A program made the translations under genes and the position numbers. From assembly GCA_047285535.1 (NCBI GenBank), contig JBJBDC010000001.1, forward strand, positions 416,136-480,135: 64,000 nucleotides of DNA. The letters are read 5' to 3'. Below the pieces are notes generated by a model, which saw only the letters and a program-made list of their open reading frames with translations, was not told the origin of the DNA and made no database searches. The first letter of the stretch is position 1, and each line of letters begins with the position of its first letter. This stretch comes from Synechococcus sp. (GTDB lineage: Bacteria > Cyanobacteriota > Cyanobacteriia > PCC-6307 > Cyanobiaceae). This document shows, in pieces, positions 8,862 to 53,143 of the stretch.

Positions 8862-8877
8862 TTTGAGCAAGATCACA
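8862..8877 (+). promoter_or_regulatory. CRP-type box (TTTGA-N6-TCACA)
   Basis: One mismatch to TGTGA-N6-TCACA; same GCAAGA spacer as other copies. Confidence 0.55.
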
Positions 8878-8918
8878 ACTGCTCATGAGCGTGGTCATCA
8901 ACTGATCCAATCAATCAA

Positions 8919-9614
8919 GTGATAGTGAATTCAGTGAATCCTGAAGTCAATCATGAAAAGGTTTTCACGCCAATTCTTGCGCTCACTCTGGCAACACCTC
9001 TTATCATTGCGGAAAATTCTCAAGCAATAGGACGCCGAAAATGTAGAGGATGCTCAGGTAAAATAGCTATGAAAAATGTAAGCACTGGAATTCACCCTCT
9101 CAACGAATTCAGCACTCATCCAGTTTATGGTTCGCGAGTAAATAAAGATGTTCCCTGGATCACTCTTGCTGAAACTTCGGGGCGAGCATGTGACAAAAAT
9201 GCAACAAGATGTAGAAATAGAGCAACTAGCGTAATCATGAATATGTATAGCAATATCTGGGAAAAAAGATGGACTCACTCAACCGAAGGTGCTAGCAGCA
9301 TTTGGCCACCAAACAAGCCTGGTCGTCCTGTCGCTGGATTGCGCTGGGTGTCTTTCTACCCGCACATCAGGCAGGATTCTTTAAAAGACAGAATAGAAGC
9401 CGCTACATGCTGCAACTCGAGAGTTCCAGCAAACGGCCGCTATAAATTTAAAATTTCTTTTAATGTAAGTGGTGATAGAGGTTGTGGCGATTTAGTGGCG
9501 CCTTTGCGATGGCGACCATTTCAAGCCTTTGATAATATTGGACCTTACGGATATTTTTCAAAAAACTATAATGTTAATTGTAAAGATGTTCGATCAAGAG
9601 GCTTGTGCGGTTAA
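8919..9614 (+). CDS. Cys-rich secreted protein, paralog of 32244-32804; start uncertain
   Basis: Signal-like ILALTLATPLIIAENSQA; shared CRxRA, CC and VNC motifs; ATG 8953 is out of frame. Confidence 0.65.
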   Translation: MIVNSVNPEVNHEKVFTPILALTLATPLIIAENSQAIGRRKCRGCSGKIAMKNVSTGIHPLNEFSTHPVYGSRVNKDVPWITLAETSGRACDKNATRCRNRATSVIMNMYSNIWEKRWTHSTEGASSIWPPNKPGRPVAGLRWVSFYPHIRQDSLKDRIEAATCCNSRVPANGRYKFKISFNVSGDRGCGDLVAPLRWRPFQAFDNIGPYGYFSKNYNVNCKDVRSRGLCG

Positions 9615-9971
9615 TTGCCTTTCGGGTGAGCCCACAGTCAGCAGATGAAGAAACTAATTAGCACGTATTGATGCCATAGCGTCTCGACAAGCCAATTGTC
9701 ATTTGGGAATGAAGCCGAGGTCTACAAGTTTTGGCTAGCACTTGGCATTGAGCAGCTTGGAAGGGATGTGGCTGGTGAGGTCGAGTCGGAATGGATGGTG
9801 CCACTTTTAGTGCTGAGGCAGAACAGAAGTTTCTCTTCAGAACTAAACAACCCTTCCAGCCCATGTGCTGGTCAACCGAACTAATTTTGACGGTGTTTAC
9901 ACCAGGGGAAAGCTTGGAACCATTCACTTGTTGCATAACAATGTTTCTATGTAACAACGAACAACAACCTT

Positions 9972-10028
9972 CAACAACAACAACAACAACAACAACAACA
10001 ACAACAACAACAACAACAACAACAACAA
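9972..10028 (+). repeat. (CAA)19 microsatellite
   Basis: Counted directly. Confidence 0.95.
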
Positions 10029-10199
10029 CCTCACCCCACTCCTGAATGAAAGGCTCGATCTCTGGGATCAACAGGATGCCGCTCAAAGGGATGGCGTATT
10101 TCACAAGGCTCTCTTGCTTGAGCAACGCATTCGACAGCTAAGCAAAGAGATCCGTATAGCGATGGGCCTGGAAGAAGGCGTCCCTTTGGAGCAAGGCTG

Positions 10200-49617: not shown

Positions 49618-50322
49618 TCAAATATTTGACTCGACGAGTCCATGGGTCAAGGCATAAACAGCTGCTTGAGTTCTATCTCTAACCCCTAACTTCTGCATCG
49701 CTGTACTCACATGGCTCTTGACTGTCTCTACTGAAAGAAAAAGGCTTTGCGCAATCTCGTTATTCTTCATTCCTTGAATGATACAACGAATGACTTCTAG
49801 CTCCCTTTCTGACAATGGGTCAACAAGCGTGGGCAATGGCTTTACCTTTGCTGTAGCAACTTCGCGTACAGCTTTTGGGAAGTAAATTCCACCACTAGTG
49901 GTAACAGTTAAGGCTTGAATGAAATCACCTGAGCCAGTACCAATAGAAGAATTAAACATCACTCCATCAGCTCCTGCTTCCATTGCTTCTTGAACAACCT
50001 CTGGCGTCTCCCTATTAAGAAAAATCATGGCCTTAAGTTCTGACGATTTTTTTTTGGCAGTCTCTACGAGCCTAATTCCATAGCCCGTTTCTAATTCTTC
50101 GCTGGTAATCAAGATATGTGGGTTGCTTTCTTGTTGAATTTGTAGCGCTTCATCTTCAGTTGTTGCTCCGCCTACGAGTGATTGCAAAATAGGAGTGCAA
50201 AGGCAAAGCGCGGAGAGCGTCAAGCGGTTTTTTGAACAAACTAATACCCTTTTGTGTGCCAATAATTTCTGACAGACAGCTGAGGCCTTCTTCATTGATT
50301 GTTCAGATGGATTGATCCTCAC
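49618..50322 (-). CDS. NarL/LuxR-family response regulator (start uncertain)
   Basis: LSERELEV...GMKNNEIAQSLFLSVETVKSHVS...KLGVRDRTQAAVYA; atypical receiver. Confidence 0.88.
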   Translation of the reverse strand: MRINPSEQSMKKASAVCQKLLAHKRVLVCSKNRLTLSALCLCTPILQSLVGGATTEDEALQIQQESNPHILITSEELETGYGIRLVETAKKKSSELKAMIFLNRETPEVVQEAMEAGADGVMFNSSIGTGSGDFIQALTVTTSGGIYFPKAVREVATAKVKPLPTLVDPLSERELEVIRCIIQGMKNNEIAQSLFLSVETVKSHVSTAMQKLGVRDRTQAAVYALTHGLVESNI

Positions 50323-51324
50323 GTCTTGATGTTTGTGATTTAACAATCGTAGCTCACATCCTATCTTCAGCAATTTTCCACCGAATAACGAGAGATCACA
50401 ACGTTCAAACCTTGGCAAAGTTTTGATTGGATGCTCACTTGGTGCCAACGTTGCTGGTTTCTATTGATATTGAGAATGACTAAAAATCCGAGAATTCATA
50501 ATGGTGGATTGAGTAATGTTTCAACTCTGCACGTTCGTCGCTACTGAGTCTTGATTTGTTCGATTGCTTTTGCTCTTAGCCCTTGTCCCATCCTTAAGGA
50601 AGGTCTCATGGCGCCCCCTTCGGCCTTAGCCCTCTAAGGACTGCGACCAGTATCAGCTGCATGAAAACCTCGCCTTACCCAGCATCAAATCCAAATGATC
50701 AAGACACAACTCAGCTGCTGCTTACGCGATCGGTGGCCGCCAACGACAAAGCCGATGCATAAGTCAGCCAAATGTGTTATATATAACGTACGCCAAAGAA
50801 CCCAGTAAAGGGACCACTGAGCGCGAACCATAAAGTTGAATCAATGAATCAAACAACACTCATTGCCAAAAGAGGTTTGCCTGCTTCAAGCGACAGTAAG
50901 CAAAAGCAACCCAAGCAAGAACCCGAACTCATCACTTGGGAGGAATTGATCGGCAGACAATAAATGATGCTCACCTAGTTGATCAGATTCCTTTTGAACA
51001 GTCACTGAGAAGGTGGCTTGAGGGTTGAGAGCTGATGAAGAACAGTCTTTATCCCATTGATGTTTTGCTCTATCAACACTATTGATGCGCTTTGAAGGAA
51101 TGGATGATCCATCGTTTCTCATGGCTTGAACTGCCGGCCGACAACACCTGCAGTGGCACCTCACCAGGACTGCCACACGCTGAACAGCCACATGGCTGAC
51201 CACCAAAGACGTTGTTCTGAGATGGATTGAAGGCGGCAGTCATATCCAGCTGCATGAAGAAGGGATTGAGTTACCTGCTGACTGCAAAAATTCGGCACTC
51301 TCAAGTCGTACTGGCAAAGGAGCC

Positions 51325-51879
51325 ATGTCCAAAAGAATCATCGCGGTGTTATTGCTGATGGTCTCATCAACGGCACCTGCAATCGCTCATCCTCGCCACC
51401 ATCGTGGTGCTTACGACCGTCACCATGATGAGGTCCACAACTACCACTATCGTCGCCCTTCAGAGAGACGAGTTGTCAAAACATACAGGCGTCCTCTCGA
51501 GAGGGACGTGGTTACAACCTACAGACTTCCCACAAAAAAGAGGTATCAAAGAATTTACACGCGCCCTTATGAAAGAGATGTCGTGACTAGCTACAGGCTT
51601 CCTGTTGAACAAAGGTCGAACAGGATTTACAAGCATCCTGTTCAACGCGAAGTCATCAAAAGCTACAGAAGGCCTGAAGACAATCGTTATCGGCACGAGC
51701 GCTATGGGACTCAAGTCAGCAGAGCTGATACCAATAGTTGTGTTGAGGGAAGTGTCATTGGTGGACTTTTAGGTGCTGGTCTCGGCGCGGTGTTATCCAG
51801 AGGAGAAGGACGTTGGATTGGAGTACCTCTTGGTGGTGCAGCAGGTGCCCTAGTGGGGTGCCAGGTTGATGGAGGTTAA
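51325..51879 (+). CDS. Secreted glycine-zipper protein with 12-aa tandem repeats
   Basis: Signal peptide, YxxPxER-type repeats, GSVIGGLLGAGLGA...GAAGALVG. Confidence 0.8.
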   Translation: MSKRIIAVLLLMVSSTAPAIAHPRHHRGAYDRHHDEVHNYHYRRPSERRVVKTYRRPLERDVVTTYRLPTKKRYQRIYTRPYERDVVTSYRLPVEQRSNRIYKHPVQREVIKSYRRPEDNRYRHERYGTQVSRADTNSCVEGSVIGGLLGAGLGAVLSRGEGRWIGVPLGGAAGALVGCQVDGG

Positions 51880-52256
51880 TGAACTTCAGGAAGGCATGGT
51901 TACCTTCTTGGACTTCAGCCATAAATAGGCCTTAGCTGGAGTCAGCGGAGAGATTCCAATGACTCCTAACTCAACATCTCCTCGTAACGGCCATCAGTTC
52001 TGACATGGAATGGTTCACGCTCCTTCTGCTCAGGATTGAGCAACATGGCCAGCCTAAAAACTAACGAGTTCCTCAAAGTTCTAACCATGAAGCCGGTCGC
52101 GCCAGGGGAGCACAAATGTCCTCTCATCCACGTCTATTAGGGCAAGGTCAAGCTTTTCCAAAAAGCCCATCGTCCATGTGAAACCACGAAACGGAGACAA
52201 TCGACCAAGTCTCAAGTCAACACTTCAGAGTTTCAGCAGGCAATCGAAATGAACCC

Positions 52257-52343
52257 TTGAGGAAGGTTTCTTCACGGAGTGGAAACAAGGAAACATGCCT
52301 TGGGTGAAGCGCAGATGCCCTGTCTTTGGCGGGGTTTTGTTTT
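52257..52343 (+). ncRNA. yfr2: Yfr2-family sRNA
   Basis: TTGAGGAAGGTTTCTTCACGGAGTGGAAACAAGGAAACA plus terminator. Confidence 0.75.
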
Positions 52344-53143
52344 GGCTGATGATTGGCTTAATATCAAGAAAACTATCTCATCATCAGTTTCATTGAACCA
52401 GCGGTGAGTCAGGAGCTGTCAAGACGATTGAACAGCTCAATCAAAGACCTCACTCAAACGTAACCAATCACATCAAGCTGCCATCTGCGGAGTTAACGAT
52501 TCAATCAGCCTTGACAGCAGAAGCAGAGACCACCAAAACCAACTATTGAATCAAATCTGGATTTCAATGAACTGGTTGCTGAACATCTGAAGAATGCGCT
52601 TAACGCTTGAGACAAAACTTGAAAAGAGTTTGATTGGTTTGCTTGGCAAACACTAATCTGAATTTGAAAAGTCGATCACCAGTGGACAGCACAATGCCTT
52701 GCTTTCCTTCAGCTTTGGAACAGAGACTCACGCTTGCGTCAAACGTCACGCCAAATCCTTGATGGTTGTCTCAATTAGATGACACAACTTGGAAACTTTC
52801 GCCTCCTGTCAACTCACCATCTCTGGATTCACGAGTCCACTCGTTGAACTCTCAGACACTCGCTGTGATTTTGCTCCCGGGCTCCTAGCAAACCTGCTGC
52901 AATAGTTAGTTTCAGCTTTGCTTCTGGCAAGTGATTAATAACGGGCCAATGCTGGATGGTCGATGTGATGCACGTTCTAGAGATTGAAAAGACTCCAAGC
53001 TTTCAACAATGCTTCAGGTTGATCATGTTGAGGATGGGACAGGCCTCCGGGTCAATGGCGATTGAGGGACTCCAATCGTCCCGAAGAACTCGACACCACT
53101 ACCACTGCTAGCGGATGGGCTTCTCTTCAACGTTGCGTGGTCA

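Follow-up and report, generated by a model that had tools for sequence, protein, structure and literature searches.

A 64,000-nt stretch of Synechococcus sp. DNA (the window; G000:C1:416136-480135 in the complete 3.03-Mb genome G000, G+C content 50.6%) contains repeated copies of a three-part promoter element, in which a strong box of the cyclic AMP (cAMP) receptor protein (CRP) type, a weaker second box and a -10 element follow one another upstream of genes for exported peptides and proteins. The element is conserved in relatives, it co-occurs with crp across the family, and crp in G000 is linked to CHASE2 adenylate cyclases and to a C39 peptide exporter. On these sequence comparisons we consider it likely that cAMP-bound CRP switches the element on, and we predict that the strong box anchors a second CRP dimer on the weak box at -41.5 from the transcription start.

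Geometry and conservation of the three-part promoter

An earlier note on this DNA had listed 13 boxes of the form TGTGA-N6-TCACA in the window, and all 13 were recovered with the mismatch counts given there: perfect at 28056, 38797, 44504 and 48937, with one mismatch at 8862, 27434, 29598, 31314, 41335 and 45016, and with two mismatches each at 35873, 45626 and 52864. Boxes with at most one mismatch number 11 in the window against 3.13±1.63 in 100 shuffles, none of which reached 11. At up to two mismatches the window holds 45 boxes against 38.0±6.0, and because 15 of the 100 shuffles reach 45, which is chance level, the 10-bp consensus by itself does not make the three degenerate sites, though present, significant. 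A further one-mismatch box, absent from the earlier list, lies at 63314-63329 upstream of a cpcG-like linker gene (62483-63220) and has no box 2. Genome-wide, spacer 6 gives 22 perfect copies of TGTGA-N-TCACA, and each of the other spacers between 2 and 12 gives 0-7. The spacer GCAAGA, described in the note as common to many copies, was found in 6 of the 10 better sites. The upstream GGCTTTCTG..ACCC was clear in three to five copies only and lacks conservation in relatives (pairwise identity 0.33 in 20 nt upstream); because of these few clear copies and the lack of conservation, we read it as a relic of local duplication outside the promoter module.

When 40 offsets were scanned after each box, a second box (TGA-N6-TCA, at most one mismatch) was found at offset +9 behind 15 of the 44 oriented perfect boxes, or at 15 of 22 sites, compared with 0-2 at each of the 39 other offsets. 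Box 1 and box 2 are 22 bp apart centre-to-centre, and the degenerate box 2 is followed 21 nt later by a -10 element (GAnnnT) and then by the predicted +1. The 22 unique G000 sites were chosen only by box 1 and box 2 with at most one mismatch each, so that the -10 and +1 were outside the selecting pattern. In 21 of these sites element position 61 is A and position 65 is T, a pair seen 0-3 times when the frame is shifted by 1-6, with a purine at position 72 in 21, a pyrimidine at 71 in 17 and G at 58 in 18. Among 60 sites of relatives, which came from loci fetched by protein or by place, the A/T pair was present in 56, the purine +1 in 59, the pyrimidine -1 in 43 and G(-14) in 50. If these positions are taken as A-11, T-7, +1, -1 and G-14 of a sigma-70 promoter, the centre of box 1 would lie at -63.5 and that of box 2 at -41.5. 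By this predicted start, box 2 would fit the class II geometry of a site centred at -41.5. None of the 31 top sites of the genome lies inside a long open reading frame (ORF), although long ORFs cover 75% of it. In CRP promoters already known from cyanobacteria, TAN3T follows the site at ~22 bp (PMC2633013), and in the G000 design the site ~22 bp before the -10 is box 2.

A strong upstream and a weak downstream site on one helix face, 21 bp apart compared with 22 bp here, are also found at whiB1 of Mycobacterium tuberculosis, where the sites abut, the upstream site helps the downstream one to be occupied, and the downstream site represses (PMC2844151). By analogy, the same CRP regulon might act as a band-pass, with box 1 activating at low cAMP-CRP and box 2 repressing at high. 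However, whiB1 as described is one promoter with sites at -58.5/-37.5 and a repressing second site (PMC2844151), whereas G000 has ~30 copies per genome predicted at -63.5/-41.5. The position predicted for box 2 is an activating one, unlike that of whiB1 CRP2, and a -35 consensus promoter was not found at these genes. Moreover, -63.5 is off what we take to be the usual class I spacing, and we regard band-pass control as unlikely.

The -12 base raises another possibility. It is G in 32 of 36 picocyanobacterial matches and T in 22 of 40 matches of other bacteria (first 80 of 123 loci, grouped by title), and box 2 is without the outer TG/CA and often reads AGA-N6-TCA. Box 1 might thus bind CRP while box 2 or GATGGTG is read by a second regulator or an alternative sigma factor, forming an AND gate; G000 has ten sigma factors, three of them like group 3/extracytoplasmic function (ECF) factors. 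We find this AND gate distinctly unlikely: the inner GA/TC dyad of box 2 is retained with the spacing of a CRP site, the invariant bases A-11, T-7, G-6 and G-14 form a sigma-70 pattern while GG varies, and the other proteins with a CRP-type helix-turn-helix (HTH) that were read have RVT helices. Since -12 is G instead of T, the picocyanobacterial -10 may be weakened, as expected of an activator-dependent promoter.

Conservation was assessed at loci of CCRG-2, a family of secreted Gly-Gly peptides (PMC8120280), which were picked by protein hidden Markov model (HMM; NF033456), not by promoter, and are present in 8 of 36 congeners. The element occurs at the same geometry in 26 of 30 CCRG-2 loci of 8 relatives (30 loci among 40 matches listed), and the four loci without it have divergent leaders. 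Anchoring was possible for 28 of 32 upstream regions, in which mean pairwise identity was 0.88 and 0.96 in the box-1 halves, 0.89 and 0.91 in the box-2 cores and 0.85 around the -10. It was only 0.33 upstream, while the gap, box-2 spacer and linker reached 0.45, 0.43 and 0.49, respectively; the box-1 spacer gave 0.57-0.71. The earlier note would have been contradicted by half-sites no more conserved than their flanks, and the opposite was found (0.88-0.96 vs 0.33-0.49). An unanchored MAFFT alignment gives the same conserved blocks. The tandem pattern is present in 30 of 36 congeners, and a reversed control pattern in none. The CCRG-2 promoters also have a conserved 5' untranslated region (5'UTR), starting ATCGGAGG, which pairs with a later CCTCC and is common to unrelated cargo genes.

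Exported cargo, the probable regulator and the crp locus

A profile built from the 22 seed sites gave 31 G000 sites at a threshold of at least 22. As read by us, 10 of these head precursors with Gly-Gly/Gly-Ala leaders, including all five CCRG-2 genes of G000, 13 head signal-peptide proteins (BTRD1-repeat and ecotin proteins among them) and two head RTX-like proteins (Pfam identifies the first as an M10/RTX protease and gives no match for the second); the remainder comprise one gene beside a cyclase, one repeat protein, one small membrane protein and three sites with nothing clear downstream. Signal-peptide or Gly-Gly cargo follows 22 of the 31 sites against 199 of 1224 control upstream positions (Fisher 5e-11), a comparison limited by a Gly-Gly pattern that was written after the cargo was seen and by crude signal-peptide and gene callers. 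For signal peptides alone, with duplicates collapsed, the figures are 10/24 against 196/1224 (p=0.003). The secreted-peptide regulon of the earlier note is supported in that its targets are enriched for exported products, but its unit is the three-part promoter, it extends through the genome and the family, and it takes in RTX proteins and leaves out Nif11 precursors.

The note's single copied promoter module explains part of this set, since the 31 G000 promoters reduce to 20 clusters at 55% non-motif identity, but the GGCTTTCTG flank does not belong to the module. The copying is genuine, yet the boxes are maintained by selection. The element might also be a mobile repeat or a recombination end of the island cassettes, its CRP likeness being incidental or only historical. 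Copies do have 5'UTR, spacer and terminator repeats in common, several have decayed or lost their cargo, the box-1 spacer is conserved, and two genomes without a detected crp keep elements. However, conservation across the 20 clusters is confined to half-sites, -10 and +1, element presence tracks crp, and the same geometry with a TAnnnT -10 stands before redox genes in unrelated phyla, so that a mere mobile repeat is improbable.

The CRP-type gene that the earlier note had called for is present. P0001 (G000:C1:526871-527563) is a 230-aa protein with a cyclic-nucleotide (cNMP) domain and a Crp HTH (PF00027, PF13545 and PF00325 over cut-off), and carries the motifs RETASR and FGE..RS, which we take to be the recognition helix and the phosphate cassette. 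The R-E-x-x-x-R helix and the GE...RS cassette recur, as RETASR and FGE..RS, in 22 of 22 orthologues. Among the G000 CRP-HTH proteins read, only P0001 has an Arg-Glu helix; NtcA and two others have RVT, and a fifth HTH match, outside the set read, lies under the threshold. The site of Rex-type repressors likewise reads TGTGA-N6-TCACA, and the boxes might be operators of such a protein; similar tandem sites do lie before NADH-oxidase-like genes in two Bacillota matches. The Rex N-terminal domain (PF06971) had no match in G000, however, in a search whose positive control matched in 7 of 14 genomes, and operators of this kind are extremely improbable here.

Of 160 family genomes, 42 are crp+ and 118 crp-, and the element was found in 29 of the former and 7 of the latter; kin are not independent, and Fisher values therefore overstate. 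Five of the seven crp- genomes with the element have a single one-mismatch match, and the other two, G016 and G062, have three and five intact-looking copies. Among the congeners, eight crp- genomes at least 90% complete carry 0, 0, 0, 3, 3, 0, 1 and 0 copies, and 18 crp+ genomes carry 1-34.

In G000, crp ends a locus that contains, in order, TIGR03896, an NHLP exporter (C39 peptidase), a CHASE2 adenylate cyclase, an element-bearing gene, a CHAT protein, a ShlB barrel and crp. Gene order and element are both kept in two other genomes (G015 and G028). Of the export-cassette families TIGR03796, TIGR03794, TIGR03797 and TIGR03896, three are over cut-off and TIGR03797 scores 592.8 against 709.4; the exporter has the C39 Cys/His motifs TECG and NHF, and its TIGR03896 partner has two cNMP domains. 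Strong C39 exporters number three in G000. The element-bearing gene, which we take to be DUF928, gave no match in Pfam. Because TIGR03896 occurs in only 10 of the 160 family genomes (8 of them crp+), the exporter link is not universal; CHASE2, found in 79 of the 160, is far wider than crp. G000 has a second CHASE2 cyclase, and in both cyclases the Lys is retained, as are the residues for metal binding and the transition state, with these roles presumed by us. A small cNMP-domain ORF 5' of the cyclase (G000:C1:518030-518485) has an internal TAA in G000, and a 707-aa Gly/Asp-rich protein encoded close to the second CHASE2 cyclase and to a cNMP protein has a lone perfect box in front of it (G000:C1:2039948-2047664).

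The low-GC, 1.9-Mb genome G092 carries the cyclase, crp, the exporter and other crp-locus genes together with 15 elements within 88 kb (C1:514000-602000; L221-L225). Its elements are mostly before CCRG-2-type precursors (about a dozen), and box 2 is mostly the AGA-N6-TCA variant. Because nine other genomes drawn from its genus (g57) have neither crp nor element, the arrangement would fit a transfer of the whole circuit in one piece.

Several observations weigh against activation by CRP, besides the limits given with the cargo and co-occurrence counts. A class III promoter has room for the C-terminal domain of the RNA polymerase alpha subunit between tandem sites (PMC2844151), and here the dimers, centred 22 bp apart on abutting boxes, leave no such space; moreover, the downstream site of the whiB1 tandem is a repressing one. 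P0001 falls under the NCBIfam CRP equivalog cut-off (best family NF008732, 66.8 vs 266 bits). The element is lacking in 13 of the 42 crp+ genomes, and in both G016 (a single contig, 99% complete, with two CCRG-2 genes) and G062 (20 contigs, 100% complete) elements were present but no crp was found, and their copies therefore count against strict dependence on crp. The exporter operon of G000 has no element, and a secreted Cys-rich gene in the window (32244-32804) has no box. In one cyclase the second position for purine specificity is Ala, a role again assumed, and because of this cGMP or another nucleotide is possible as the signal instead of cAMP. Finally, G000 has eleven Nif11-domain genes, but Nif11 precursors, those of the Prochlorosin (Nif11/ProcA) system, are not among the targets: the tandem element was found within 400 nt of 0 of 11. 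A LanC-like search in G000 gave no match, nor did its positive control.

For CRP activation, which we still favour, the proposed sequence of events is as follows. An outside signal would act on a CHASE2 cyclase and raise cAMP; CRP would fill box 1 first and then cooperatively help a second dimer onto box 2, which keeps only the inner GA/TC contacts and would occupy the class II place in a weak promoter. The otherwise poor promoter would then fire, with output climbing steeply with the cAMP made by CHASE2 cyclases. Gly-Gly precursors would be exported by the C39 exporter, signal-peptide proteins by Sec and RTX proteins by type I secretion, and copying of promoter-plus-5'UTR cassettes in islands would allow new cargo genes to be gained and old ones to decay.

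Promoters and precursor genes of the window

Beyond a tRNA-Pro gene (8025-8098), the window is an island of small genes and repeats. Seven of its promoters are intact (8862, 27434, 28056, 31314, 41335, 45016 and 48937), two are decaying (38797 and 45626), two are orphaned (44504 and 52864) and two are lone boxes (29598 and 35873). As the earlier note had stated, a box lies upstream of six of the seven genes with Gly-Gly/Gly-Ala leaders (28164, 38989, 41526, 44935, 45453 and 48765, but not 47925) and of three signal-peptide genes (8953, 27522 and 31393). Among these, however, 38989 is a remnant, 8953 is frameshifted and 45453 has a decayed box only, while the boxes at 29598, 35873, 44504 and 52864 head neither a precursor nor a signal-peptide gene.

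On the plus strand, the first intact promoter (box 1 8862-8877, box 2 8884-8899, -10 GATAGT 8921-8926, predicted +1 8933) precedes a Cys-rich basic signal-peptide protein (8953..9614), which, compared with its paralogue at site G000:C1:1659180, carries a frameshift close to the start and is probably a pseudogene, the in-frame GTG at 8934 being the sole alternative start. The second (box 1 27434-27449, box 2 27456-27471, -10 GATGCT 27493-27498, predicted +1 27505) precedes a 129-aa basic Cys-containing signal-peptide protein without a family (27522..27911), and its cassette is closed by a plus-strand hairpin resembling an intrinsic terminator (27969..27994), a repeat that recurs at 28383, 30145 and 41742 (plus strand) and 35967 (minus strand). 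Behind it, box 1 at 28056-28071, box 2 with one mismatch at 28078-28093, -10 GATGGT at 28115-28120 and predicted +1 at 28127 head a 65-aa CCRG-2 precursor whose leader ends in Gly-Ala (28164..28361; NF033456 38.3 bits, cut-off 24). This is the only precursor matching NF033456; those at 41526, 44935, 45453, 47925 and 48765 gave no match. A 198-aa Cys-rich basic signal-peptide protein without a family (31393..31989) follows box 1 31314-31329, box 2 31336-31351, -10 GATGGT 31373-31378 and predicted +1 31385. The box at 29598..29613 has neither box 2 nor -10 on either side and is probably a relic; the decayed box at 35873..35888, which has neither box 2 nor cargo gene, is a relic. At 38797..39108 a decaying cassette keeps a perfect box 1, a damaged box 2 and a 39-aa remnant precursor (38989-39108). 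The last intact plus-strand promoter (box 1 41335-41350, box 2 41357-41372, -10 GAAGCT 41394-41399, predicted +1 41406) serves a 64-aa Gly-Gly leader precursor with a Ser/Tyr-rich core (41526..41720), of which two further copies elsewhere have the same promoter.

On the minus strand, an orphan promoter (44455..44519) has a perfect box 1 (44504-44519), box 2 (44482-44497), a -10 shifted by one base and no cargo. A 100-aa Gly-Gly leader precursor (44633..44935), with a weak class IIb bacteriocin match (TIGR03949, 17 bits against a cut-off of 21.5), lies beside the intact promoter with box 1 45016-45031, box 2 44994-45009, -10 GATGTT 44967-44972 and predicted +1 44960. A 62-aa Ser-rich Gly-Gly leader precursor (45265..45453), a paralogue of 41526, has upstream of it a decayed box 1 with two mismatches (45626..45641) and a damaged box 2. 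The 64-aa leader-like precursor at 47731..47925 has no box of its own; a 91-aa Gly-Gly leader precursor with a C-terminal Cys pair (48490..48765) follows the intact promoter with box 1 48937-48952, box 2 48915-48930, -10 CAAACT 48888-48893 and predicted +1 48881. In the decayed module at 52864..52879, box 1 has two mismatches, box 2 is disrupted, GATGGT comes one base early and there is no cargo.

The two Ser/Tyr-rich precursors of the window (41526-41720 and 45265-45453), together with copies at G000:C1:89221 and 274210, form a four-copy Gly-Gly family whose core starts with GRSCY; with 41526 as the query, none was found in 45 congeners. Positions 46044-48765 are a low-GC block with a protein of ATP-grasp type (cyanophycin-synthetase-like, under cut-offs), a thioredoxin-like gene and two peptides that bear leaders, with a third such peptide on its flank at 45453; it is a candidate peptide-modification cluster under the 48937 promoter. 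A NarL/LuxR-type response regulator in the island (49618-50448) adjoins this 48937 cluster. Three paralogous 73-76 aa Cys/His-rich ORFs without a family match (minus strand, 30989-31210, 38475-38702 and 41003-41233) are each divergent from a box (31314, 38797 and 41335, respectively), ~100 bp away. A minus-strand Cyano-1 (Yfr2-type) RNA lies inside the cassette array (30246-30310). The window also encodes, besides the CCRG-2 precursor, a phycobilisome linker and an SLH porin, and these three together with the Cyano-1 RNA identify the DNA as that of a marine picocyanobacterium.

Relation to known systems and meaning for picocyanobacteria

CRP regulons predicted in cyanobacteria by Xu and Su in 2009 (PMC2633013) include TGTGA-N6-TCACA sites and crp in MIT9313, MIT9303, CC9311 and CC9605, with many hypothetical targets. 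Box sequence, crp and a -10 ~22 bp after a site are the same here; however, single sites are described there, and the main text does not use the words 'tandem', 'secreted' or 'bacteriocin' (PMC2633013), whereas the strong G000 box lies ~44 bp from the -10 with a weak second box in the class II place. The island Syn_GI122 (PMC7522525) likewise brings together CHAT proteins, adenylate cyclases and CRP in marine Synechococcus, while the available part of that account names neither DNA site nor target genes nor a link to peptide export. CCRG-2 precursors of peptides made on ribosomes and modified after translation (RiPPs; NF033456) share with the G000 ones a short Gly-Gly leader, multiple copies and picocyanobacterial hosts (PMC8120280, PMC5974335); those accounts, as far as available, name no regulator, whereas in G000 the shared promoter ties these genes to other precursors and to Sec and RTX proteins. 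CCRG-1 responds to co-culture in strain NATL2A (PMC5974335), which is outside the 12 crp+ genomes of Xu and Su (PMC2633013), and the co-culture response is therefore not always CRP-dependent. By analogy, the CyaD1/D2/K-Clr pathway of Sinorhizobium meliloti (PMC13001267) may be compared, in which CHASE2 cyclases feed a CRP-family regulator and an outer-membrane beta-barrel takes part in sensing a protein signal; it answers to a plant signal and controls symbiosis, whereas the G000 barrel is of the ShlB/FhaC type beside a CHAT protein. In the literature searched, with most subscription papers outside its scope, neither the tandem promoter nor a control of CCRG-2 by CRP is described. Each of the three components (CRP sites, the crp island and CCRG-2) had been reported before, and their link and the tandem promoter design are apparently new.

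The tandem geometry with a TAnnnT-type -10 was also seen in many Acidobacteriota and some Bacteroidota (loci among L072-L190), where it precedes genes that look, by eye, like those for cytochrome c, for radical SAM and universal stress proteins and for CRP/FNR, and possibly marks an unrecognised anaerobic regulon. Contigs of a metagenome-assembled genome titled Salipiger (L127, L140, L142, L173) carry the picocyanobacterial version of the element and are probably mis-binned DNA.

CRP had been regarded as largely lost from marine picocyanobacteria, and where it is present its targets were unexplained hypothetical genes. The present promoter would give it a job, namely the control of exported peptides and proteins, with a candidate path from CHASE2 cyclase through cAMP to CRP, and its pattern offers a handle for mining, with which small secreted genes and families of precursors missed by every HMM are found. 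More tentatively, and with less confidence than for the promoter itself, we suggest a transferable cell-interaction circuit in marine picocyanobacteria: a secreted CHAT protein and a CHASE2 cyclase might sense neighbours, cAMP might switch on an exported arsenal carried on islands through a cooperative twin-CRP promoter and tune the exporter through its cNMP partner, and cassette copying might renew the arsenal. With the promoter model, the question of what switches on CCRG-2 peptides becomes directly testable, and such a circuit, if true, would be the missing trigger of these co-culture-responsive peptides and would define a tandem -63.5/-41.5 promoter class that Acidobacteriota use too.

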